A DNA stretch of 32,000 bases from an uncultured Actinomycetes bacterium (GCA_963784835.1 CAWASM010000002.1:272076-304075); one strand, 5' to 3'. Positions 2,872 through 18,617 are shown, numbered from the stretch's first letter. A program made the numbers and translations. The notes: generated by a model not told the origin, from the sequence alone.

Positions 2872-3991
2872 CTACCGCACGGAGCGATAGCCGCCCGTGA
2901 CGCCCCTCGGGCTGAGGACGACCTGCCAGACCTGGTGTCGTCTCACCCTGAAGCTGGCTGCGCAGGAGAGCAGGTAGTACGTCCACATCCGGTAGAAGCG
3001 CTCATCGTAGTCGTGCTTGATCGAGTCCCAACTGTCTCGAATTCTGGCACCAAGCCATGAGCGTGGGATCGTAGTACACGCCGAAGTTATGCCAGTCCTC
3101 CAGGATGAACAGCCCTTCGGCGGCCGTGGTGATCTGCTTGGCGGAGGGGATCATCGAGTTCGGGAAGATGTACTTCGCGATCCAGGGGTCGGTGTGCCGG
3201 CCCGACCTGTTGCGCCCGATGGAATGGAGCAGCATGAGGCCGTCGTCTGCGAGCGACCTGTGGGCCACTTCCATGAAGGTGCGATAGTTGTTGACCCCGA
3301 CGTGCTCGAACATGCCGACGGACACGATCCGGTCGAACGGCCCGTGAAATCTGCGGTAGTCCAAGAGCTCGAAGTCCACGGGAAGCCCCGCTGCCCGTTC
3401 GCGGGCAAGATCGATCTGTTCGCGCGAGACAGTGACGCCCGTGACGTGGGCGCCGTACTTCTCGGCGGCGTATATGGCGAAGCCGCCCCAGCCGCAGCCG
3501 ATGTCCAGGACCCGCATCCCATCGCGAAGGTCCAGCTTGCGGCAGATCAGGTCCAGCTTGGCCTCCTGGGCTTGGTCGAGGGTGACGGCCGACTCCCAGT
3601 AGCCGCAGGAGTAGTTGAGACCCTTGTCCAGCATCTTGACGAACAGGTCGTTGCCGATGTCGTAGTGGTGTTCGCCGATCTCGAACGCTTTGGTGAGGCG
3701 CTGCGGATTGAGCATCCTGGCCTTGAGGACGGCCCACAGTAGAGCCTTCGAGCGGCGCATGTGCTTCTCCAGCCCCGCGGTCAGGACGCGTTCGAAGAAC
3801 TGGTCCAAAGCCGGGCAGTCCCACCAGCCGTCCATGTAGCTCTCGCCAAGCCCCATCGTGCCGTTGCCCAGAATGGCCGAGTACAGCCTCGGGTCGTTCA
3901 CCTTGATATCGAAAGGCCGACCGCCGTCGATCTGCACTCCTGCGATATCCAGCATGCTCTGCACGAGCAACTGCCCTGCGTCACTCTTCAC
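2872..3991 (-). CDS. cfa: Cyclopropane-fatty-acyl-phospholipid synthase. Frameshift near 3040.
   Basis: GTG 3991 lies 6 nt after AAGGAGGG. 'LGESYMDGWWDC', the SAM-binding 'VLDIGCGWGG' and 'FDRIVSVGMFEHVG' are present. The C-terminus 'DSWDSIKHDYDERFYRMWTYYLLSCAASFRVRRHQVWQVVLS' continues in another frame to the stop at 2872. Span is 3n-2, with the break at 'cagaattcgagac'. Confidence 0.85.
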
Positions 3992-4182
3992 GCCGCTCCC
4001 TCCTTGGCGACGGCCGGCGGATCCACCGCACGGCTGCCTCACTGCTCGATCACGAACGATGCGTCGGCTGTGGCATGACAGGCCACGCCATCACGATACA
4101 CTCCGGAGCCGGACCCCGGCGAAACCCACGTCGGTGACCTGGGTCCCTCCCAAGATCTCAAAGACCGCTCTGCGCCGTTGTG

Positions 4183-4760: not shown

Positions 4761-5231
4761 CTAGTAGTGGAGCTTGTCCAGTGCTTGCTGTGCCGCGGGG
4801 TCGTCCATGGTGATCTTCGGATCGGCGTCATCACCCTTGGTGAATGTTGTGTTGTCCTTCGCCACGTCGTTGACCGCCCAGAATGTGCCGGCGCCCTCTG
4901 GGTCGTCGGTCGCCCACACTCCTTGATGGTTCTCCATGCTGCTCGAGAATTCCATAGCGACGAAGTACACGTTGGGCAAGGTCGCGCTACTGACCATCCA
5001 ACCAGAAAGCGGTCTAACCACGGCGTCTTCCTTTGCGCCCGCGGCGATGGCGTCGAGAAGACCGGGCGATACGATCGCATCCACTGGCTCTGTGGCCGGG
5101 GCACCCGCGGCTGCTGTGGTGGCGCTCACCGCCGTCGTCGTTTGCGTCGCCCCACCATCTCCGCCGCAGGCGGCAAGGGGGATGACGAGCAAGGCAATCG
5201 CCAGCAGGATCAAGACGCAACGCAGCTTCAT
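4761..5231 (-). CDS. Lipoprotein, function unknown
   Basis: Intact ORF. The signal peptide has the lipobox 'VIPLAAC', followed by a Thr/Ala-rich linker. Confidence 0.7.
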   Translation of the reverse strand: MKLRCVLILLAIALLVIPLAACGGDGGATQTTTAVSATTAAAGAPATEPVDAIVSPGLLDAIAAGAKEDAVVRPLSGWMVSSATLPNVYFVAMEFSSSMENHQGVWATDDPEGAGTFWAVNDVAKDNTTFTKGDDADPKITMDDPAAQQALDKLHY

Positions 5232-5524
5232 GACATGGACCCCATCTTGTTCGAATTAGAATCACTCCAACCAACCGTGATTGGCCGGTGCCCAGAGACC
5301 TTATCACCCGGAGGCGGTGCCGGCAAAATCCCATCGGCGTCTCACAGAGGCGACGCATTGGCGAGCCCGTACGGTCGCGCACGTTCTCGGGAACTTGACC
5401 CTTGTCCCAACTGAGATGTTGCTGAGAATCGAGTCGGACCCGCGCTACAATGGGGCCGCGACCGGCCCTGCCCGTTCGCGTCTAGCGATGGGGCCCCGGG
5501 CCCGCGCGGAGAGGGAGGACCGAA

Positions 5525-7276
5525 GTGGAGACTGGGCTCACAAGCGGTTGGCACATGTCGCGCGGGGGCGCAACGTACGGTCCCTACGAATGGAACGACC
5601 TGGTCGCCTGGGCGCAGGGAGGGCGACTCGCCCCCGGAGACCTCGTCTGGCAGGCGCAGCTTCCTGGTTGGATGCCGGCCGGGAAGGTGCCGGGATTGTT
5701 CCCGGCCTGGTCCGACGCTCTGGTTCCCGCGTATGGACAATCCCAGAGGATATCCTCACACCGGGGACGATGGGCGCTCATAGCCGGGCTGTCCACGCTT
5801 GTCGTGGCGGGAGCGGTGGTGGGGGTGCTCTTCGCGGCCGGGGTCTTCTCCAAGCAGTCCGTGGTGGTCGAGACTCCCATGCAGGGCCCCACGGTCATCG
5901 ACGTTCCCTATGACTCCTCGGAGCTGGTGGTTTCGCCTGAGGATGGAGGGCAGCTCGAGTTTCAAGGCGCCCAGATCTCTGTCCCGCCGGGCGCGGTAGC
6001 TTCGGACGCGACGCTGGAGGTCAAGGTACTGCCGGATGACTTCAACGTGAGTCCGACGGCTTCGCCAGAGGATGAGTTCTTCGCGGTCGGCCCCGTGGTG
6101 GACTTCGGGCCCGCGGGAACCGCCTTCGACCAGCCGGTGACGGTCACCGTGCCCTACGACGAGGGTCTCCTGCCGGCCGGTATTCCAGAAGAAAACGTGG
6201 CTTTGGTCTACTGGGATGGGTCGGCCTGGGTCACGGTGCAGGGCACGGTCGACACGAGCAGGAACACCGTCACCGCCCAACTTCGGGAGTTCGACGGGGT
6301 AGTTCTCACGACCGTCGCAGCGCTCGTATTGGTGCCAGTCGCGGTGGGGATGTGGGTCTACAAACTGACCAGGAGCGACCCCATCATCGATGGGAAAGCG
6401 GACACGTACATCATCCCCGACAACTCCACGGTCAAACAGATGGCCCAGACCAGCACGTGCGGCGGCGTTTCCCTTGCCAACCAGCAAGCACTTGCCCAGC
6501 ACATGGAGAGTCTGCAGACCCCGACACCGCAGAAGCTCGCCTTCACCAAGCCCGACGGGACACAAATCCAAATGAACGAGGGCGAGCACTACGACGCGGG
6601 TGCCGGCACCAACTGGCAGATGCCGAACGCCTTCTTCGACAAGAACATGAAGGGGGACTGCACAGACGTGACCAATGCCATGGTGAGCGTGTTCCGGTCG
6701 CTCGGGTATGAGGCCAGGGGAGTATTCGGATATGAGACTGATCCCACTACGAAGGCGCAAGACCCGCACGCGTGGGGAGAAGTGCTGATAGGCGGCAAGG
6801 TCTACCTGATCGACGAGCAGGGGCAAGTGTCACCGCGTGAGCGGGCCATGGAACTGCAGCACTTGGAGCGGCCCAAACCGGAGGACGCTCGGTACAAGAT
6901 GTGGGACGACGTCAATCACGTGCAAAAGCAAGATCCCGACTGGTACAAGCGGTACCTCACCAGCACGACTACCAGCACGACCGCCGGCATCGACGCCATG
7001 GCCATAAACGGCACTTGGGTAGGCCAGGCGAGCAACGGGACAGCAGTCGATGATGTCAATCTCGTCATAAGTGTCTCAGAGGGGGGCACCGGAAGCGCCA
7101 CGGCGACGTGGAAGGACCCACGGTACTCGCCGATGCAAGCGATGGTGGTAATCAACGGGGACGTGGTTGAAATAGGATTCCAGGACATGACCCAGTTGTC
7201 TGGAAACTTTACCGGTGGCAATACCCTAACCCTGTCGGGCCCGTCGACAACGTGGAAGCTCACGCGGGTACAGTGA
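5525..7276 (+). CDS. Membrane protein with a GYF_2-like N-terminus, two TM helices flanking a ~190-aa domain, a transglutaminase-like cysteine protease core and a C-terminal beta-rich domain
   Basis: GTG 5525 lies 5 nt after GGGAGGA. 'GWHMSRGGATYGPYEWNDLVAWAQGGRLAPGDLVWQAQLPGWMPAGKVPGL' fits the GYF_2/DUF4339 pattern. The TMs are 'WALIAGLSTLVVAGAVVGVLFAAGVF' and 'VVLTTVAALVLVPVAVGMWVY'. The Cys-His-Asp context is 'GDCTDVTNAMVSVFRSLGYEARGV...DPHAWGEVLIGGKVYLIDEQG'. Confidence 0.8.
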   Translation: METGLTSGWHMSRGGATYGPYEWNDLVAWAQGGRLAPGDLVWQAQLPGWMPAGKVPGLFPAWSDALVPAYGQSQRISSHRGRWALIAGLSTLVVAGAVVGVLFAAGVFSKQSVVVETPMQGPTVIDVPYDSSELVVSPEDGGQLEFQGAQISVPPGAVASDATLEVKVLPDDFNVSPTASPEDEFFAVGPVVDFGPAGTAFDQPVTVTVPYDEGLLPAGIPEENVALVYWDGSAWVTVQGTVDTSRNTVTAQLREFDGVVLTTVAALVLVPVAVGMWVYKLTRSDPIIDGKADTYIIPDNSTVKQMAQTSTCGGVSLANQQALAQHMESLQTPTPQKLAFTKPDGTQIQMNEGEHYDAGAGTNWQMPNAFFDKNMKGDCTDVTNAMVSVFRSLGYEARGVFGYETDPTTKAQDPHAWGEVLIGGKVYLIDEQGQVSPRERAMELQHLERPKPEDARYKMWDDVNHVQKQDPDWYKRYLTSTTTSTTAGIDAMAINGTWVGQASNGTAVDDVNLVISVSEGGTGSATATWKDPRYSPMQAMVVINGDVVEIGFQDMTQLSGNFTGGNTLTLSGPSTTWKLTRVQ

Positions 7277-7560: not shown

Positions 7561-7635
7561 AAAGGGGGCCGGAAGTCCGGGCCTTTCATATGGTAGCGGG
7601 GACAGGATTTGAACCTGTGACCTTCGGGTTATGAG
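7561..7635 (-). other. Direct repeat of the tRNA-fMet 3' 45 nt (7591-7635) plus a terminator-like hairpin (7561-7587). att-type island junction.
   Basis: 7591-7635 is identical to 18541-18585. Identity stops inside the anticodon loop (..gttatgag). Confidence 0.8.
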
Positions 7636-7899
7636 TGGTGCTATAGACGATCTAGTGCATGGTTTCTAGCATCGCTTGGTGCCTTCCTGTCTGCAAACAG
7701 GGCATTTCTCCAAAGAACCCCGAACGCCGGTGTAGGCCCGTTCTGACCGGTGCGTTGGAGAGATGTTGGCAGGTTCTTGTTGTCCCCGACCGCCGCGTTG
7801 TGCACCTCGCACAACACCGATGGAGTGGACGGCGTACTGTCATCCCGAGCACCCTACCCGTCTGTGAGTGACAGGAAAGGTGTTCCATACGACAGCATT

Positions 7900-8714
7900 C
7901 TACGGCATGCCTTTCCACGGTTCGCCCGGGATCCTGGCGATCAGACGCTCATGCACCAACCTATAGGCCTGGTCGATGTCGTGGCCCGAGTCATCTCGGA
8001 GTAGGGGCATGACGTCATTGCGGAAGTCGGCGGAAGCCAGCTTCTGGGCCATATTCGCTTCGTAAGCCGCTCTCGATACAGACAGTCCTCCGTGCTCCAG
8101 ATAGGCACGAAGGCCAGCGACTACGCGCTCCTCATCGGGTGAAAGCGTCTCGAGCGCAAGCCATAGGTCGTACAGATCGCGTCCCTTTCGGCGCTGATAG
8201 AGAGCGCGGAGCTTGGTGGCCATCAGTTCCTCGAGAGCATAGGTCGTCACCGGGACGGTCGCAGCGTACCAGGCGTTTCTCACGGCGAACGGAACCTGAT
8301 GTAGCCCCTCCACCGCGAAATGCTCCCGTGTGTTGATCTCGATCTTCACCCGCATCCGCCGGACCGGATGCGCTGTGGTTTCGAAACCGTAGAGGAGCTT
8401 CACGCTATCGGCAGCCTGCTGGAACGTGGGGGGCCCAGCCAACCGTCGAGCGCTTCCTGGACCTCCAGAAGAACCGGTTTGATGGGCCCAGCCGTCACCT
8501 GCACTAGGTCCAGGTCCTCAGAGTACCTACCGGGAGGATCGAAGAACAGCTTATGGAGAGCCGTCCCGCCCCGGAAGGCAAGCATCTCGCGCAGTGCCGG
8601 TCGCGCGAATATCTCGGAGAGAGCGCGGGAGAGCACCAGGTCTTGCTCTACCTGCTCATCGAGAGCCCACGGCGCCTGCGCGCGCCATGCCGTGATGTTC
8701 GCCCGAGGTATCAC
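7900..8714 (-). CDS. abiEii: AbiEii/AbiGii-family nucleotidyltransferase toxin (type IV TA). One frameshift at the G-run 8428-8433.
   Basis: 'VEQDLVLSRALSEIFARPALREMLAFRGGTALHKLFFDPPGRYSEDLDLV' and 'KIEINTREH...KLRALYQRRKGRDLYDLW' are typical of DUF1814/AbiEii. GTG 8714 overlaps the upstream stop (GTGA). Span is 3n-1. Confidence 0.8.
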
Positions 8715-9546
8715 AGATCGAGCTCTATCTCCTACATTGGGGATCACGCGCCAAGGTGCTGCGGGAACGGCATCGCCCCGCGGCATGTCACGCGCGAGCA
8801 GTACCGGACGATAGCGTCGTGCCGCCAGCGCCCGCAGAAGAGCATCGGCCAGGCGAGACTGACCGGCCTGATCGAGAAGGAAACCAAGCCGCTGGACCTC
8901 GGGACTCTTCCGCGCCTCGGCCAGGGTGTGGAGCCCGGCGGGGTCGATTCGCTCCGCCAGTTCAGAAAGCACCATCGCCACGTTACTCCACCCGCCGCAT
9001 GCGGAGGAGAACTTCACCAGGTCGAACGCAGTCAGTCTCAGGGTTAGAGACAAGCATGGAGCCCGTCTCTGTCTGCATGCTTGTGACAGGCTCGTCTTCC
9101 AAGGTCCCAGTCGCGTGGAACTCGATACGAGCTCGCCCTACCTTCGCCGGACGGGTGGGTCGGTCGGTCATCACCTGGAAGACCATGGATTGCTGGTGCG
9201 AAGCGCCGTGAAGAGCGGCGGCCGAGAGAAGACCGACATGGTAGGGCCGGCCCAGAAACCGCATCAGATCGTCGATGAACCACGACGGCGGCGGGGCACC
9301 CGCTGCGCGGTACTCCATGGGCACGATCACGAAGAAGCCGCGGCGCGGCACAACGAGTCGCCCCCTATTCTTCAGGCGCCGAATAGCGTTGTCGAGTGCG
9401 ATCTCCGAGATACCCAGTGCACCCCGAGCCTCCGAATCCGAGAAGGTGTAGCGGCCTGCTGCCTGAGTATCATCAACAAAGGCAGTCAGACCGGGGAAAC
9501 TGATGTCATCTGCAAGCGCCATTCTGTTTGCGTAATATAGCGCCAA
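8711..9546 (-). CDS. abiEi: AbiEi-family antitoxin/transcriptional regulator. Two frameshifts (~9030 and ~8735).
   Basis: The N-terminal wHTH-like part is 'GRYTFSDSEARGALGISEIALDNAIRRLKNRGRLVVPRRGFFVIVP'. The C-terminal part is '...TAFDLVKFSSACGGWSNVAMVLSELAE...PWRVIPNV', then 'EIELDL*' in a third frame. The first break sits at a tandem ACTGACTG. An alternative start is ATG 9522. Confidence 0.75.
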
Positions 9547-10842: not shown

Positions 10843-10917
10843 AAAGGCCCGGAAATCCGGGCCTTTCATATGGTAGCGGGGACAGGATTTGAACCTGTGA
10901 CCTTCGGGTTATGAGCC
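10843..10917 (-). other. Direct repeat of the tRNA-fMet 3' 47 nt (10871-10917) plus a terminator hairpin (10843-10866). att-type island junction.
   Basis: 10871-10917 is identical to 18541-18587. The hairpin aaaggcccgg/ccgggccttt is identical to the one after the intact tRNA. Confidence 0.8.
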
Positions 10918-13085: not shown

Positions 13086-14048
13086 CACCTTCACGATACC
13101 AACTTCTCTCTCAGGACCTCATACGGAGTCAGCCCCTTAAGCCCGGCGTGAGGCCGGTGGACGTTGTAGAACTCCTCCCAGACCGCGAGCTTCTCCGTGA
13201 GGTCGACGTCGTCGGTGTACTCAAGGAGCTGATAGAACTCGAGCTGATCGGTGAGGTGAGAGCGCTCGACCTTGCCGTTGAGGTTCGGGCTCCCCGGCTT
13301 GATGTAGGTGTGCTTCATGCCCTGGTCCTCCACATGCCAATGGAACTTGGCCTGGAACTCGTGGCCGTTGTCGGTCCGCACGGTGTGGATGCGGAAGGGG
13401 AAACGCTCCACGACGTGGTCGATGAAGTCGATGGCGCTCTCCTGGTTGTGTTTGTTATAGACCTTGAGAGCGCGGATGCGGGTGGCGTCGTCCACGGCGG
13501 TGAACTGGTAGCGCTGCACCTTGCGGCCGGCCGGATCCACGAACTTCAGGAACTTCACGTCCACCTGCACGTGGTGGCCGGGCATCTGCTTCTCGTAGCG
13601 CTTGCTCATGATCGAGCGAGTGCGACAGTTGGCCGGCAGCCGGCTGAGACCATTCCGGGTGAGCACGCGGTGGACCCCGCTCGCCGAGATGCCTATCCCG
13701 TGATAGCGCTCCAGGTACCAGGCGATCCGCCGCGGTCCGAAGTGATAGTTACGGCGTAGGTGAAGGATCTTCTCCTCGACGGGGGCCGGCGTGCGTAGGG
13801 CCACATTCTGCGGGCAGGGCTTCTTGTTCACGAGACCCGTCTCGCCATGTTTCTCGTAGGCTCGCTTCCAGATGTAGAAGCACTGCCGTGAGATCCCGAA
13901 ATGGCGGCAGGCGAGCGATACGTTGCCTGACTCTTCGGCGTACCTAAATACGGCCAGCTTGCGCCTGATGTCCCTCTCAGCTTTCGTCACCTAACAACCT
14001 CCGATTGACTCTCGCTACTCTATAGCTTGTGTCAACCAAGGTCGTGGA
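13069..14048 (-). mobile_element. IS481-family insertion sequence
   Basis: Terminal inverted repeats are ACGACCTCGGTTGACAC (13072-13088) and GTGTCAACCAAGGTCGT (14029-14045), matching at 16 of 17 positions. They flank a single DDE transposase ORF. I could not identify a target-site duplication. Confidence 0.8.
13091..13990 (-). CDS. IS481-family DDE transposase (rve integrase core)
   Basis: Intact 299-aa ORF. It has an N-terminal HTH ('ACRHFGISRQCFYIWKRAY'), 'HVQVDVKFL...FTAVDDATR...VRTDNGHEF' (the DDE context) and 'FYNVHRPHAGL'. Confidence 0.9.
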   Translation of the reverse strand: MTKAERDIRRKLAVFRYAEESGNVSLACRHFGISRQCFYIWKRAYEKHGETGLVNKKPCPQNVALRTPAPVEEKILHLRRNYHFGPRRIAWYLERYHGIGISASGVHRVLTRNGLSRLPANCRTRSIMSKRYEKQMPGHHVQVDVKFLKFVDPAGRKVQRYQFTAVDDATRIRALKVYNKHNQESAIDFIDHVVERFPFRIHTVRTDNGHEFQAKFHWHVEDQGMKHTYIKPGSPNLNGKVERSHLTDQLEFYQLLEYTDDVDLTEKLAVWEEFYNVHRPHAGLKGLTPYEVLREKLVS

Positions 14049-14130: not shown

Positions 14131-14145
14131 TAGCGACAAAAGGAA

Positions 14146-14220
14146 AAAGGCCCGGAAATCCGGGCCTTTCAAATGGTAGCGGGGACAGGATTTGAACCTG
14201 CGACCTTCGGGTTATGAGCC
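14146..14220 (-). other. Direct repeat of the tRNA-fMet 3' 47 nt (14174-14220, 1 mismatch) plus a terminator hairpin (14146-14169). att-type island junction.
   Basis: Matches 18541-18587 except for one t>c change at 14200. Confidence 0.8.
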
Positions 14221-14466: not shown

Positions 14467-14985
14467 CTAGAGGGCGATCACCCGGAACGCTCTCACGTTC
14501 ATCTGTCCCGAGGCGTATATGCCGACTGTCCCGGCCTCCAGCTGGCGGTTGTCGGTCGCCCTCACTACCTCGGCGCCGTCAAACAGTAGCCGGATGGAGT
14601 TTCCATATACCTCGAGCCGGTAGGTATGCCAGTTGCCATCGTCCACGTATTTCACGCTGGAGAGCATCTCGGAGGCGAAACCCACCCGCACTGAGCAGTC
14701 CGACTGATAATAGCCCCCCTCGTAGCCTCCCCAGTATCCTTCACCGCTAATCAGTCTGGCCTCCAGGTAGAAGCTGCCTTTGCTGGGGTCGATCACCTGC
14801 ATCTCCGCTTCCACCGCATAGTCGGTCATACTTCCCAGATTTACCGGGGCGATTGAAATGGATGGCTGGGTCCCGTCCGATACCAGCATCCCGTGAACGC
14901 TCTTCCACTGGCCCACTCTCGCCCAACCTTCGGTGTCCGCCGTCCACTCGGTGATCTCGTAGACCAGGGTGCCAGGGGTGACGAC
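14467..14985 (-). repeat. Copy 1 of a ~520-bp direct repeat; copy 2 is at 15888-16406
   Basis: The nucleotide strings are near-identical through the 3' two-thirds and more diverged toward the 5' end. They encode the paralogous lectin-like domains of the lipoprotein and the TIR protein. Confidence 0.85.
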
Positions 14986-15276
14986 GGCCTCGGTTGTAGT
15001 AGTGGTGGCCGCGGAGGTGGTGGTCGTGGAGATGGAGGTGGTCGCCATGAGAGTCGTCGTGGTGGTATCCGACGCACTCGCGTTCGTCGTGGGCGTCACC
15101 GCGGTGGTCAGAGTGCCCGACTCGGCCACGGTCGCGCTCGGGCCTGAGGGAACATATGAGGTCGCACTGCAACCTGCAACCAGGAACACAAGGAGAAGGA
15201 GGGGAATCATCCAATGCGGTCGCCGTGATATCTTGCGACGCTGCAAGACGCCGTCGTTTGCCTCCCGGCCGTTCAT
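14467..15276 (-). CDS. Lipoprotein with a Thr-rich linker and a C-terminal concanavalin-A-like (DUF1080/LamG-like) domain
   Basis: Lipobox 'FLVAGC'. The linker is TTTTT-rich. The domain shows 'GQWKSVHGMLVSDG...DYAVEAEMQV...GNWHTYRLEVYGNSIRLLFDGAEVV...GTVGIYASGQMNVRAFRV'. Its ATG overlaps the upstream stop (ATGA at 15273-15276). Confidence 0.75.
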   Translation of the reverse strand: MNGREANDGVLQRRKISRRPHWMIPLLLLVFLVAGCSATSYVPSGPSATVAESGTLTTAVTPTTNASASDTTTTTLMATTSISTTTTSAATTTTTEAVVTPGTLVYEITEWTADTEGWARVGQWKSVHGMLVSDGTQPSISIAPVNLGSMTDYAVEAEMQVIDPSKGSFYLEARLISGEGYWGGYEGGYYQSDCSVRVGFASEMLSSVKYVDDGNWHTYRLEVYGNSIRLLFDGAEVVRATDNRQLEAGTVGIYASGQMNVRAFRVIAL

Positions 15277-15791
15277 TGTTGACCTCCCGCTACAGGATCT
15301 TGGCCTTTGTCATCTCCAGCCTCTGGCTCAGAAGCGATGGCCTCAGCCGCTTGCTCGCTCGACAGGGGCGGAGCCGCCTCCTGCGCGGCGTACTCAGCCG
15401 CCGGAGCCTTCGGCGCCTCGCTCTGGAACTGGGCAGGTGGGCTGACGGGCCTGGCGTTCCGCTTCCGCCGCATCCGCACCGCGAGAGCCACCACCACTGT
15501 CAAGACGATCGCCCCGAGGAGAAACCACGCGGCCAGCTTCATGAAATCGCTCAGAGTATCATCGAGACTCAAGCGCACCGCTGCCACGACGACTGCAAGC
15601 GCCAAGGTCCGGATGTACAGCTTCTTGACCACCCACACGACGGCCAGCAGCCACGTCGCGATGATGCACACCCAACTACAGGCCACAAAAGCCACCGAGG
15701 CGGCGCTCGTGTCGCGCATGTACTCGAGTGCAAAGAAGCAACCGATCGCCAGCACGGAGAACACTGCCTGCCATGCTCTAAAGACCGCCAT
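15273..15791 (-). CDS. Polytopic membrane protein (about 4 TM) with a Pro/Ala/Glu-rich tail, function unknown
   Basis: ATG 15791 follows GAGGAGTGAGAAGG, although the ORF is open up to 15851. Hydrophobic segments include 'AVFSVLAIGCFFAL', 'VAFVACSWVCIIATWLLAVVWVV', 'LALAVVVAAV' and 'AAWFLLGAIVLTVVVALAV'. Confidence 0.65.
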   Translation of the reverse strand: MAVFRAWQAVFSVLAIGCFFALEYMRDTSAASVAFVACSWVCIIATWLLAVVWVVKKLYIRTLALAVVVAAVRLSLDDTLSDFMKLAAWFLLGAIVLTVVVALAVRMRRKRNARPVSPPAQFQSEAPKAPAAEYAAQEAAPPLSSEQAAEAIASEPEAGDDKGQDPVAGGQQ

Positions 15792-15887
15792 CCTTCTCAC
15801 TCCTCTCGAACTGAGCGTCTTGTCCTCGACCCGGAGGGCGGCGGCAGACAAAGCCAGCTGCCCATCGCCCGATGAGACTATCTCATA

Positions 15888-17237
15888 CTACAGAGCGACC
15901 ACGCGGAACGCTCTCACGTTCATCTGTCCCGAGGCATATATGCCGACTGTCCCGGCCTCCAGCTGGCGGTTGTCCGTCGCCCTCACTACCTCGGCACCGT
16001 CAAACAGTAGCCGGATGGAGTTTCCATATACCTCGAGCCGGTAGGTATGCCAGTTGCCATCGTCCACGTATTTCGCGCTGGAGAGCATCTCCGAGGCGAA
16101 TCCCGCCCGCACTGAGCAATCCGATTTGTAGTAACCCCCCTTGTAGCCGCCCCAGTACCCTTCGCCGTTGATCAGTCTGGCCTCCAGGTAGAAGCTGCCT
16201 TTGCTGGGGTCGATCACCTGCATCTCCGCTTCCACCGCGTAGTCGGTCAGGGTTCCCAGGGTTACCGGGGCGACTGAAATGGACTGCTGGGTCCCATCTG
16301 ATACCAGCATGCCGTCCACAATCTTCCATTGGCCCATCTTCGTCCAGCCATCAGCGCTCGGCGTCCACTCGCTCTTGTCGTAGAGCACTGTGCCGGGGGT
16401 GACGACGGCCTGAGTGGTGGTCGTGGTGGATGAGGAGGTGGTGGTGGATGAGGTAGTGGAGGAGGAGGTAGTGGTCACCTCAGTGATAGTCGTGGTCGTC
16501 GCAAGGTCATTCGTAGTCGCCGGCAAGCCGGTAGTATGAGAAGACTCTGCCATGGCGGCCGCGGAGATGCTGCTGCTGACCGTGGTGCCCCCATCAGTTC
16601 CGCCGGCCTTTCCGCCCCCATACAGCATGACCGCGAACACGATGGCCGCGATCACCACCATGGCTCCGGCCCCAAGACCGACCAGACCCAAGGGACGCCT
16701 ATACCATCGTCGGGAGCCCTCGACTGTGCCTCTGGGTGGCGGTGTTTTCACCGTCTCCGCACGGGAGGCGGTCACGGTAATCGGTGTGTGCACCCGGGCT
16801 ACGGGCTCTACCCCTGGCGAGGCAGCACTCCCATCTCTCGCTAGGAGTAGCTGTACCGTGTCGGTTAAGTGCTCGAGGTGCCTCTCCAGCGGTGGAGTGA
16901 TCGCATCCAGCCAGTGCGTGCTGCTTATGTAGTATTCCATTGCCGCGCTGGGGGCCACGTGTTCGACCCGGAAAGGCAGTATGGGGATCGCCCTGCTCGC
17001 CGCCCTCTCAACCTCCCTCACCACATGGGGAGAGTTGTTCGATCTGGAAGAGAACACCAAGACCATGAGCGCGGCATCGCTGATAGCCTTGATGAGCTGT
17101 TCGGCATAGTCGCGGCCGGGTAGGACGTCGCGCGGGGCGACCCAGCAGCGCACATGCTTCGCCTCCAGGGCAGCGGACACCGCGTCCGCCACGGGCTTGT
17201 CCTCAGACGAGTAGCTGATAAAGACATCGTGCGCCAC
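15888..17237 (-). CDS. TIR-domain protein: N-terminal TIR, one TM helix, Ser/Thr-rich linker, C-terminal concanavalin-A-like (DUF1080/LamG-like) domain
   Basis: GTG 17237 lies 7 nt after GAGGGGG. 'HDVFISYSSEDKPVADAVSAALEAKHVRCWVAPRDVLPGRDYAEQLIKAISDAALMVLVFSSRSNNSPHVVREVERA' fits the TIR_2 pattern. The TM is 'LGLVGLGAGAMVVIAAIVFAVMLY'. The C-terminal 172 aa are paralogous to 14467-14985. Confidence 0.85.
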   Translation of the reverse strand: MAHDVFISYSSEDKPVADAVSAALEAKHVRCWVAPRDVLPGRDYAEQLIKAISDAALMVLVFSSRSNNSPHVVREVERAASRAIPILPFRVEHVAPSAAMEYYISSTHWLDAITPPLERHLEHLTDTVQLLLARDGSAASPGVEPVARVHTPITVTASRAETVKTPPPRGTVEGSRRWYRRPLGLVGLGAGAMVVIAAIVFAVMLYGGGKAGGTDGGTTVSSSISAAAMAESSHTTGLPATTNDLATTTTITEVTTTSSSTTSSTTTSSSTTTTTQAVVTPGTVLYDKSEWTPSADGWTKMGQWKIVDGMLVSDGTQQSISVAPVTLGTLTDYAVEAEMQVIDPSKGSFYLEARLINGEGYWGGYKGGYYKSDCSVRAGFASEMLSSAKYVDDGNWHTYRLEVYGNSIRLLFDGAEVVRATDNRQLEAGTVGIYASGQMNVRAFRVVAL

Positions 17238-17405
17238 CGATACGCCCCCTCTTTCACACACCGATGATCGTGGGCAACTGGACTATAACACGGTGGACTC
17301 CGGAGAAGTCGAGCCCAAAACTGACCACCCCTAAATCACCCGCTACGTGGCCCAGATCGAGATGACCTTGCCTCGGCAGGCACGGTCCACCCCGGCCTCT
17401 CCCCC

Positions 17406-17897
17406 CTATCGAGAAGTCCAGCGTGCAATCCCCAGACCTACCGAGCGAAGCAGGAGCGGTATGCGCTCCACCACTCGCCTGTCCTTTTCCTTTTCCTCCT
17501 CGGGAAGCCTCTTGTAACGCACTAGACAAGGATGAGTGCGGGCGACAGGATCGACCGTCGGCCCGAAGCTCCACCCGGCCTGAAGCTTCTCGCGCATCCA
17601 CCGCATGTGCTCTTGCCGGGACAGGCGTTCGAGTTCTCTGGGTGTGAACCTGAACTCCCCGAGAACAAGGCCATTGAGAGGGACAATCGCGGCACCGATC
17701 ATCTCCAGCTTCGACCCTATGTCATCAGCCTGGCTGCGGTTGGAGTCTCGTTCCTCCTCAGACAGACGCTCGTAGGGAACCAGCCTCCCGGCGTCTGGGC
17801 TGGCATCCCGGGATACGGCCGCCCGGGCGACGTAATCCTGATGGATCGCCTTCGCCAACTCCTCGCGCGAATGTGCTTCAAGATGGGTGGAAATCAT
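17406..17897 (-). CDS. RyR-domain protein (two RyR-like repeats)
   Basis: 'ELERLSRQEHMRWMREKLQAGWSFGPTVDPVARTHPCLVRYKRLPEEEKEKDRRVVERIPLLLRSVG' fits the RyR-domain consensus. A weaker first repeat is 'LAKAIHQDYV...LVPYERLSEEERDSNRSQADDIGSKL'. ATG 17897 overlaps the upstream stop (ATGA). Confidence 0.75.
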   Translation of the reverse strand: MISTHLEAHSREELAKAIHQDYVARAAVSRDASPDAGRLVPYERLSEEERDSNRSQADDIGSKLEMIGAAIVPLNGLVLGEFRFTPRELERLSRQEHMRWMREKLQAGWSFGPTVDPVARTHPCLVRYKRLPEEEKEKDRRVVERIPLLLRSVGLGIARWTSR

Positions 17898-18379
17898 GCC
17901 GCAGCATCGCTCCGAAGACCCCCGCTGCTCTCCGCGACCTGTTTCCACTCCCTGCTCTCCGACTCCATGAGCGTCTCGGCACGCTCTACAAACAATGCGG
18001 CGGGATCCGCTATCCCGGCATACGGGCCAGCGCTGTAGCGAAAGAGATGTACCTCACGCTGCAAGGCTTCGCATGTGAGTCGATGCGTGATCCACGACTC
18101 CTTGTTCTTGAAGGCTGACAAGCTCACGGTCGCGATTGCCGCCACCATTGCGACCGCAGCAGGCAGGATCCGAAAAATCACCTCCGACGGATGGTCCAGC
18201 GGTGGAGGCGAGAAGATTATGTCCAGTACCAGGAGCACAGGGGTCAACGCCGTCGCTCCGATGGACAGTGCCGCCAGACGGCGGAATCGGCGCCGGTGCT
18301 GCACGGCCTTGCGGCCGTGATACTTGATTTGGCCTTCAACGCGCTCGGTCAAGTACAAGCCAACATCTGACGCGCCCAT
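17894..18379 (-). CDS. DUF4231/SLATT-family 2-TM protein
   Basis: ATG 18379 lies 4 nt after AGGAGGG; the ORF is open up to 18424. 'QIKYHGRKAVQHRRRFRRL' is followed by two TMs ('ALSIGATALTPVLLVLDIIF', 'ILPAAVAMVAAIATVSLSAF') and then 'ESWITHRLTCEALQREVHLFRYSAGPY', which is the DUF4231 layout. Confidence 0.75.
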   Translation of the reverse strand: MGASDVGLYLTERVEGQIKYHGRKAVQHRRRFRRLAALSIGATALTPVLLVLDIIFSPPPLDHPSEVIFRILPAAVAMVAAIATVSLSAFKNKESWITHRLTCEALQREVHLFRYSAGPYAGIADPAALFVERAETLMESESREWKQVAESSGGLRSDAAA

Positions 18380-18507
18380 GAGGCCCTCCTGGTCACCATC
18401 TGACTCGACGCTTCTTCTTACCATTTTAACGGCGTCACGCGCAACTCCACGGGGGTCAATTCAGGGGGCAGGCGCGTTAAGAGCAGCCTACGTGACGATC
18501 CCGCCAA

Positions 18508-18537
18508 AAGAAAAAGGCCCGGAAATCCGGGCCTTTC
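18508..18537 (-). terminator. Rho-independent terminator after tRNA-fMet
   Basis: On the minus strand the stem aaaggcccgg/ccgggccttt is followed by a T-rich run (tttttctttt). It starts 4 nt after the CCA end. Confidence 0.7.
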
Positions 18538-18540
18538 ATA

Positions 18541-18617
<77 letters not shown>

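Follow-up and report, generated by a model that had tools for sequence, protein, structure and literature searches.

Operons that pair a TIR-domain protein with a SLATT membrane protein have been validated as type VII Thoeris systems (ThsB and ThsH), which are phage-protective (Yirmiya et al., bioRxiv 10.64898/2025.12.03.692087). The type VII TIR proteins make cyclic ADP-ribose (cADPR) only upon infection, externally added canonical cADPR elicits system-dependent toxicity, and the AlphaFold 3 model of the SLATT effector ThsH is a membrane-spanning oligomer (bioRxiv 10.64898/2025.12.03.692087). Here we analyse a locus in which a TIR gene and a SLATT gene are accompanied by a third gene, for a protein with a ryanodine receptor-type (RyR) domain. 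It lies in a 32,000-nucleotide stretch of DNA from an uncultured Actinomycetes bacterium (GCA_963784835.1, CAWASM010000002.1:272076-304075), hereafter the window. Five consecutive same-strand open reading frames (ORFs) occupy positions 14467-18424 of the minus strand, beside a tRNA-fMet gene in the first segment of an island; in order of transcription they encode the SLATT protein, the RyR protein, a TIR protein with one transmembrane (TM) segment, a 4-TM protein and a lipoprotein. All five were found at the coordinates given in an earlier note on this DNA. Two start codons, those of the SLATT and TIR genes, were refined, being set by public gene calls and orthologues rather than by the longest ORF.

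RyR-type domains have so far been shown to bind TIR-made signals only as phage counter-defence. RyDEP, a phage protein of family PF02026, hydrolyses 2'cADPR and 3'cADPR by means of a His75/Asp117 dyad while Trp78 and His100 hold the ligand, and of eight phage homologues that share these residues, six bind but do not cleave the signal (PMC13232231). The RyR Tad protein gp68 binds 3'cADPR at 43 nM and both 2'cADPR and canonical cADPR at less than 1 μM, its ligand residues being H129/W132, K147/H154 and K170/D171 (bioRxiv 10.64898/2026.06.04.730250). Panoptes combines a guard or signal-depletion logic with a 2-TM effector (PMC12657218). A host RyR protein beside a TIR or a SLATT is not mentioned in the literature searched, an absence that is no proof of novelty.

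At a probability of roughly 0.55, we favour the reading that the locus is a three-gene Thoeris-like immune module of the type VII kind, with the RyR protein as the subunit through which the SLATT effector would bind cADPR. A cue from infection or from the envelope, possibly read here by the DUF1080 ectodomain, would cause the membrane-anchored TIR protein to oligomerise, and its TIR domain would convert NAD+ to a cyclic ADP-ribose isomer. The RyR protein would bind this isomer in its single intact pocket (H97/W100/H122/K138/D139) and, as a subunit or gatekeeper of SLATT, would let SLATT oligomerise into a membrane-breaching assembly, with aborted infection as the outcome. The earlier note had drawn the same division of labour, with TIR as signal maker, the 2-TM protein as effector and RyR as ligand or adaptor module, and the experimental work of 2025-26 on type VII Thoeris, RyDEP and RyR Tad fits it. 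Its description of this kind of system as uncharacterised has been overtaken, TIR and SLATT operons having been validated already (bioRxiv 10.64898/2025.12.03.692087); on the comparisons made here, the part that appears undescribed is the host RyR subunit.

The likeness to type VII Thoeris consists of a TIR gene beside a SLATT membrane-protein gene and of a logic in which a TIR-made, NAD-derived signal leads to membrane breaching by SLATT. The locus differs from the two genes of type VII in having a conserved third gene, RyR, translationally coupled to SLATT in every related locus. In addition, the window TIR is of another clade (classic TIR_2) and is fused to a TM segment and an ectodomain, where sister loci have TPR or NACHT modules, and the SLATT likeness to ThsH is one at the domain level only (SLATT_1, two TM helices). 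Type I and type II Thoeris, with ThsA proteins of the SIR2-SLOG or Macro-TM kind, are similar in that a constant effector with a nucleotide sensor is accompanied by variable or multiple TIR genes (compare loci L091 and L092 below). In the present locus, however, the sensor would be RyR instead of SLOG or Macro, and would reside on a polypeptide separate from the effector.

The SLATT-RyR cassette and its TIR partners

Profile hidden Markov model (HMM) searches returned the TIR, SLATT/DUF4231, RyR and DUF1080 assignments of the earlier note with scores that all exceed the curated cut-offs. The SLATT protein matched DUF4231 in Pfam (E=3e-13, 50 bits; cut-off 24.7) and SLATT_1 in both NCBIfam (E=2.6e-27, 95 bits; cut-off 41) and Pfam (E=3.5e-8), the RyR protein matched the Pfam RyR family (E=3e-19, 69 bits; cut-off 27.4), and the TIR protein matched TIR_2 over residues 13-121 of its long ORF (E=1.7e-20, 74 bits; cut-off 28). 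The 3keto-disac_hyd/DUF1080 family was detected in the TIR protein (E=1.3e-10, 42 bits) and in the lipoprotein (E=3.9e-9, 37 bits), against a cut-off of 26.8. In NCBIfam the RyR protein had no match and the SLATT protein was matched by the SLATT_1 domain model only; the 4-TM protein had no family match in Pfam, NCBIfam or the PADLOC profiles. PADLOC-DB 2.0.0 produced only weak generic TIR matches for the TIR protein (best 33 bits) and nothing for the other four genes, a result in line with the earlier note.

A hydropathy scan assigned the SLATT protein two TM helices (38-56 and 67-85) and the RyR protein none; the N-terminus of the SLATT protein is strongly basic. The single TM segment of the TIR protein is preceded by the motif RRWYRR, its ectodomain is lectin/LamG-like, and its start is supported by an orthologue that begins MAHDVFISYSS. 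On the basis of this hydropathy topology, the TIR domain, the RyR protein and both SLATT termini are predicted to share the cytoplasmic side, and the two DUF1080 domains to lie outside. The SLATT protein is the predicted membrane effector and the TIR protein a predicted signal synthase that keeps the catalytic glutamate, which is a general trait of Thoeris TIR proteins. This residue, Glu75, is invariant in 29 homologues and aligns with the conserved TIR glutamate of TIR-STING and of a type VII ThsB. Structure prediction of single chains with AlphaFold 2 (AF2), followed by Foldseek, yielded the expected TIR fold for the TIR domain and a Repeat12 fold for the RyR protein. The TIR model has a core predicted local distance difference test score (pLDDT) of about 90, and Foldseek matched it to the TIR domains of MAL, AbTir, RUN1, SPARTA and SARM1. 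Against the PDB, a single-sequence search with the TIR found nothing, and matches appeared only with a profile of the 29 homologues.

The closest homologues are in Anaerolineae and Coriobacteriia metagenome-assembled genomes (MAGs). Homologues of the RyR protein, 57-73% identical, were found in metagenomes. Wherever the flank suffices, the upstream neighbour is an orthologous SLATT gene whose stop codon overlaps or abuts the RyR start. A TIR-superfamily neighbour is present in every related locus, so that the SLATT-RyR-TIR triad picked out by the earlier note recurs throughout those examined, but its sensor part varies (TM with DUF1080, TM with PQQ propeller, TPR, or NACHT-TPR). In three loci (L007, L089 and L090) the order is SLATT, RyR and TIR-TM-PQQ, with a TIR and TM region 68% identical to that of the window and a PQQ beta-propeller in place of DUF1080. 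Other loci (L008 and L095/96) have a divergently transcribed TIR-TPR gene followed by SLATT and RyR, and in the Coriobacteriia MAG (L097/98) SLATT and RyR lie beside a convergent DUF4062-NACHT-TPR gene, DUF4062 being a member of the TIR clan. With cytoplasmic TIR-TPR or DUF4062-NACHT-TPR proteins in sister loci, the extracytoplasmic sensor to which the earlier note drew attention is not a constant feature of the TIR partner.

Across the related loci, identity is 48-63% for SLATT and 40-67% for RyR, while the TIR partners are 25-27% identical or unalignable. Because SLATT and RyR are constant, the TIR varies and the two remaining genes are confined to the window, the conserved unit is best described as a SLATT-RyR cassette with an exchangeable TIR. 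To judge from these alignments, SLATT and RyR are inherited together as an overlapping start/stop cassette while the TIR partner is exchanged. Linkage to an adjacent effector candidate, another general trait of Thoeris, is conserved in the window, L007/89/90, L008, L095/96 and L097/98. By analogy, the constant SLATT-RyR and varying TIR would mirror Thoeris systems, in which the effector is constant and the TIR genes are variable and sometimes multiple. A metagenome scan with the SLATT alignment gave two loci only, both from the same population as L007. The contigs of L089 and L090 are near-identical, and their TIR-TM-PQQ proteins (L089:7138-8373 and L090:5764-7479) differ in length, 411 against 571 aa, by a block of propeller repeats, which indicates that the ectodomain repeat number changes rapidly.

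The ATGA overlaps that the earlier note reported, between the SLATT and RyR genes and between the 4-TM and lipoprotein genes, can both be read in the sequence. The second of these, together with the shared strand and the prediction of no strong terminator inside the five-gene run, would suit a single obligatory five-gene system in which the TIR receptor could not work without the 4-TM protein and the DUF1080 lipoprotein. The lipoprotein does carry, as the earlier note held, a paralogue of the C-terminal domain of the TIR protein. The two DUF1080 domains align over 175 ungapped codons (direct repeat D2, 92% nucleotide identity) with a ratio of nonsynonymous to synonymous substitution rates (dN/dS) of 0.23, and therefore both copies appear to be under purifying selection. 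In the last 65 codons dS is only 0.13, which may reflect recent gene conversion, and 17 of the 26 amino-acid differences fall within the first 50 codons. However, neither extra gene follows the orthologous triad in L089/L090 or is present in the L008, L095 and L097 loci, and sister TIR proteins have other ectodomains or none. An obligatory five-gene system is therefore very unlikely, and the five-gene composition that the earlier note treated as a unit has to be reduced to three. As the locus comparison has it, the 4-TM and lipoprotein genes are local accessory add-ons outside the conserved core; the lipoprotein is a plausible co-receptor or decoy for the TIR ectodomain.

Linkage beyond this clade was surveyed in one genome per GTDB species. 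A scan with the RyR alignment gave 80 loci, and their six-frame ORFs were searched with HMMs built from sequences found in this analysis. A TIR ORF was present in 33 of the 80 bacterial RyR loci, within 300 nt of the RyR ORF in 22, and a SLATT ORF in 15, within 300 nt in 14; 24 of 53 TIR ORFs lay at most 500 nt from an RyR ORF. In the control, 80 IMG/VR viral RyR loci (0.85 Mb), there were no TIR ORFs and no SLATT ORFs. Chance adjacency of the TIR genes was rejected on these figures (33/80 bacterial against 0/80 viral loci, and 24 of the 53 TIR ORFs in close proximity). No close SLATT relative was found in IMG/VR viral contigs, and a prophage or phage origin of the cassette was rejected for want of viral relatives. 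The locus likewise lacks the character of a phage-encoded anti-defence gene, as the islet is cellular and viral RyR loci are without TIR or SLATT. The earlier remark that RyR domains recur in the same predicted networks thus stands in part: no paper to that effect was found in the literature searched, and the neighbourhood counts demonstrate the association.

The surveyed loci are varied in their composition. RyR loci are common in Myxococcota, Planctomycetota, Acidobacteriota and Chloroflexota, and the TIR partners in them include TIR-kinase, TIR-STAND, TIR-TPR and TIR-PQQ proteins. An Acidobacteriota arrangement has a divergent TIR, then RyR, then a double-SLATT protein; in Gemmiger, SLATT is followed by RyR; in Bacteroidales and Desulfobacterota, a large RyR fusion is accompanied by a small RyR and a TIR. 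One locus encodes a 639-aa TIR-RyR-TIR fusion (L092:308-2227), in which we see a parallel to the 'TIR and SLOG' effector of type IX Thoeris. At the same position its sister contig (L091:2761-13035) has a TIR-TIR protein without RyR, preceded by a 592-aa double-SLATT protein. Further TIR genes, at least four in each contig and several of the TIR-PQQ kind, stand in tandem after these, giving at least five in all. Other RyR fusions are TrkA_N-RyR (L014, L016, L017), AAA-RyR (L001, L021), RyR-TPR_S-guanylate cyclase (L042, L048) and RCK-like-RyR (L077), and several of the fusion genes adjoin TIR genes. These fusions may be further RyR-sensor effectors, and the type X Thoeris effector known as 'ion channel' may be a relative of the TrkA_N-RyR type.

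The RyR protein and its nucleotide pocket

The AF2 model of the RyR protein (pLDDT 90; predicted template-modelling score 0.83) superposes along the entire chain on Repeat12 of RyR1 and RyR3, itself a two-repeat domain, with ATP, ADP and dantrolene complexes among the structures matched, at Foldseek template-modelling scores of 0.6-0.72. PDB entries of RyR Repeat12 also match the protein by sequence, down to E=1e-25. The chain has two repeats. Repeat 2 carries an intact nucleotide pocket, H97/W100/H122/K138-D139, all five residues of which are invariant in the alignment of the protein's family (A1). Repeat 1 is degenerate, keeping H19 and Y22 while the second His and the Asp are replaced by A36 and N53, so that one intact pocket per chain is expected. 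The pocket spacing of 0, +3, +25, (+41), +42 is identical to that of H75/W78/H100/D117 in RyDEP and of H129/W132/H154/K170-D171 in RyR Tad; the equivalent of RyR Tad K147 is not conserved in the window protein (V115). The DyoEdafos RyDEP was not among the 40 phage matches listed of 135, and the PDB sequence search contained no RyDEP entry, so the residue equivalence to RyDEP rests on the spacing and on the RyR Repeat12 alignment.

Almost all RyR domains, cellular and viral, have the His/Trp/His/Asp residues, in a count that is partly biased by the retrieval patterns. Because this holds for both groups, sequence cannot separate a sensor from an enzyme, and the pocket residues were rejected as a means of telling the two apart. 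In the viral loci (L099-L178, from IMG/VR) the tblastn match mostly covers the second repeat only, from about residues 74-97 to 132-160, and the stop-to-stop ORFs have a median length of 145 aa. Position 138 is Lys in 76 of the 76 aligned viral RyR domains, as it is in RyR Tad and the window clade, and Tyr in most cellular RyR domains, as in animal RyRs.

Like RyDEP and RyR Tad, the RyR protein has the PF02026 Repeat12-like fold and the His/Trp/His/Lys-Asp pocket. In contrast to the phage proteins, which are single-repeat homodimers, it is cell-encoded and has two repeats in one chain, one of them degenerate. RyR proteins of the window type are also always paired with SLATT and TIR, and their expected role would be to sense or regulate the host's own signal rather than to evade it. 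The best sequence and structure match is to Repeat12 of animal RyR1-3, which is likewise a two-repeat single chain tied, physically or genetically, to a membrane-permeability device. The animal domain, however, is part of a Ca2+ channel of 5,000 aa for which direct cADPR binding is unproven, whereas here a stand-alone protein of 163 aa is encoded beside a 2-TM SLATT.

A role as sensing subunit is favoured for the RyR protein because its gene is coupled to that of SLATT, because it is passed on together with SLATT as the TIR changes, and because RyR elsewhere takes the position of SLOG, Macro or SAVED sensors. Several points weigh against this reading. The SLATT protein of type VII Thoeris appears to sense cADPR unaided, so that no separate sensor is needed (bioRxiv 10.64898/2025.12.03.692087). 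The His/Asp glycosidase dyad of RyDEP is conserved in the window RyR, which makes a signal-degrading role conceivable, and the residue-conservation counts carry a bias of their own, as the loci were retrieved with patterns containing THPCLV or EHxRW. The TIR clade is very large (1,162 matches, 60-70% identical in the TIR region, with many different C-terminal modules); with more than 1,100 such promiscuously fused relatives, adjacency to SLATT or RyR is not obligatory, and one locus, L093, has neither. BLASTP found no similarity of the window TIR to two type VII ThsB sequences (Table S1 of the type VII work; E=0.84 and E=5.5). The neighbourhoods of the related loci, the window itself excepted, are not obvious defence islands, and an extracytoplasmic sensor would be unusual for phage sensing. 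Finally, phage protection, the TIR product and the RyR ligand are all predictions for this clade.

The first two of these points lead to an alternative in which the RyR protein is a brake. SLATT would bind the TIR product directly, as has been proposed for ThsH, which needs no partner, and RyR would hydrolyse the signal like the RyDEP glycosidase, or buffer it, setting a threshold and switching the response off in the manner of ring nucleases in type III CRISPR. The conservation of the binding Trp and His along with the catalytic dyad is consistent with this role, and so are loci that encode both a large and a small RyR protein, of which one could be regulatory. The start/stop overlap and the co-inheritance with SLATT, not with TIR, are, however, more in keeping with a stoichiometric complex than with a diffusible enzyme. 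RyR is also found fused to effector- or sensor-type scaffolds and, in L092, to TIR itself, where a fused degrader would be futile, and the majority of the eight phage homologues mentioned above bind without cleaving. We regard a brake as unlikely, but it is the strongest of the competing readings.

The signal could instead hold the effector closed. In such a guard or decoy arrangement, a low constitutive TIR signal would keep RyR-SLATT shut, and phage sponges or glycosidases, phage RyR proteins included, would deplete the signal and release the SLATT pore. Panoptes works on this principle with a 2-TM effector (PMC12657218), the host sensor would be homologous to the phage sponge family, and a membrane TIR with an ectodomain has no obvious cytoplasmic part for sensing phage. 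The proposal is drawn by analogy, however, and the TIR partners have sensor modules of classic types (TPR, NACHT-TPR, kinase, STAND), which points to triggered rather than constitutive synthesis, as does the infection-dependent production of cADPR by type VII TIRs (bioRxiv 10.64898/2025.12.03.692087). We consider a guard highly improbable and retain the cADPR-sensing subunit as the preferred role of the RyR protein.

Immune and non-immune readings of the module

The topology of the TIR protein bears on whether the module acts against phage at all. Its TIR-TM-ectodomain layout, with lectin-like or PQQ-propeller ectodomains, could belong to a transmembrane signalling or programmed-death module, responsive to envelope stress or to kin or contact in filamentous or social bacteria, in which the ectodomain would read an extracellular ligand and TIR, RyR and SLATT would alter membrane permeability. 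The setting of homologous loci among ordinary metabolic or surface genes would agree with this, as would the fusion of RyR to RCK/TrkA_N domains, which are typical of ion-channel regulators, and the abundance of RyR loci in the four phyla listed above. The window copy, however, resides in a mobile tRNA island array next to AbiE, and the presence of an AbiEi/AbiEii locus in a neighbouring islet of the same array speaks for an immune module. The swapped TIR sensor parts and the variation in repeat number between near-identical strains (411 against 571 aa) resemble arms-race turnover, and the bacterial pairings of TIR and effector that have been studied experimentally in the searched literature are all antiviral. 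A non-immune function is quite unlikely on balance, and the Thoeris-like immune module remains the explanation that we prefer.

A broader proposal can be put forward tentatively, and we hold it to be possible, at odds short of even. Host Repeat12-type RyR proteins would be dedicated receptors for TIR-made cADPR in widespread bacterial systems, gating membrane effectors that are SLATT proteins or are RCK/TrkA_N-, AAA- or cyclase-linked, and would be the counterpart, perhaps the ancestor, of the animal cADPR-ryanodine receptor axis. The TIR synthase would resemble an inverted Toll-like receptor, with a cytoplasmic TIR, one TM segment and a variable ectodomain, so that an outside cue would trigger the pathway. 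If true, RyR would be an added class of sensor domain in Thoeris-like immunity, beside SLOG, Macro and others, and the phage RyR sponges and glycosidases would be explained by capture of a host receptor fold. Proteins of 163 aa and 161 aa would offer a small bacterial model for the coupling of nucleotide binding by Repeat12 to a membrane-permeability device, with a bearing on the long-debated direct action of cADPR on ryanodine receptors. The membrane TIR proteins with swappable ectodomains, a very large and unstudied family, would also gain attention.

The tRNA-fMet islet array and its other genes

The five genes exactly fill one islet of 4.3 kb between the tRNA-fMet gene and a copy of its 3' half, as the tRNA 3' half and the terminator hairpin repeat at the distal end (Table 1). 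Direct repeats of the tRNA 3' end bounding the element (D1 and D3), a trait of tRNA-integrated islands, are thus present.

Table 1. Positions in the window of the five genes and of the features that bound their islet
Feature	Position	Strand	Evidence and remarks
tRNA-Met (CAT), initiator type	18541..18617	-	ARAGORN; Rfam tRNA, 65 bits; integration site of the island array
tRNA terminator hairpin	18512..18537	-	11-pair stem, then T run; precedes the SLATT gene; second copy at the far islet end
SLATT_1/DUF4231 protein, 161 aa	17894..18379	-	Pfam, NCBIfam; public gene call P0146 is the same
RyR-domain (Repeat12-like) protein, soluble, 163 aa	17406..17897	-	Pfam RyR; 100% identical to P0001
TIR(1-134)-TM(185-203)-Ser/Thr linker-DUF1080(about 275-449) protein, 449 aa	15888..17237	-	GTG start; Pfam; public call P0167
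4-TM protein, 172 aa, with acidic/Pro-Ala-rich tail	15273..15791	-	Four hydrophobic segments
Lipoprotein: LVAGC lipobox, Ser/Thr linker, DUF1080 domain	14467..15276	-	Signal peptide; Pfam 3keto-disac_hyd
Distal islet boundary	14145..14219	-	tRNA 3'-half copy 14168-14219 and terminator hairpin 14145-14170; repeats D1, D3 and alignment

The initiator character of the tRNA, read from the sequence, lies in a C1:U72 mismatch and three G-C pairs (GGG/CCC) in the anticodon stem. Its 3' half occurs in five copies in the window, at 407-458, 7585-7636, 10865-10916, 14168-14219 and 18535-18586; with the more diverged copy at 407 taken as reference, the other four show 83-87% identity. The final 45 nt of the tRNA, the terminator hairpin and about 60 nt downstream recur at 14168, 10865 and 7585, with a diverged copy at 407. 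As the tRNA 3' end, hairpin and downstream stretch recur in this way, three or four small islets, each 3.3-7 kb long, are arrayed in tandem at one tRNA-fMet gene. Upstream of SLATT in L089 (about 4990-5440) and L090 (about 3600-4070) there is a tRNA-like stretch that translates as '...GGFEPP...'; ARAGORN finds no tRNA in it, and the remains of a tRNA or some other structured RNA may be present.

Among the ORFs scanned in the window there was no tyrosine or serine recombinase that could serve as a cognate integrase, and the islet carrying the cassette had no phage genes among those scanned. A CD-NTase/SMODS cyclase is absent from all islet genes and neighbouring ORFs scanned, and a CBASS system with a SLATT effector was rejected for lack of this cyclase. 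The sole recombinase-like gene among the scanned ORFs is an rve-family, insertion sequence-type transposase in the next islet. This gene (13091-13990, minus strand, second islet) also has helix-turn-helix domains, and we take it to be IS481-like. Its cluster at 90% identity has 27 members, most of those listed being named 'transposase InsO family protein' and located on JGI contigs of about 1-3.5 kb, a pattern that suggests an insertion sequence active in the community.

The AbiEi/AbiEii genes occupy the islet after that of the transposase. The locus (7900-9546, minus strand) seems to be split over three overlapping ORFs, of which 8983-9546 has AbiEi_4 and the N-terminal part of AbiEi_1, 8400-9053 the C-terminal part of AbiEi_1 and the AbiEii N-terminus, and 7900-8442 the remainder of AbiEii. 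Frameshifting or decay of these genes is possible. A plus-strand gene (5525-7276) in the outermost islet, which is delimited by the diverged repeat at 407 and the one at 7585, encodes a 583-aa protein composed of GYF_2, ZU5 and a transglutaminase-like core. ZU5 is a mostly eukaryotic domain that is tied to death-fold proteins.

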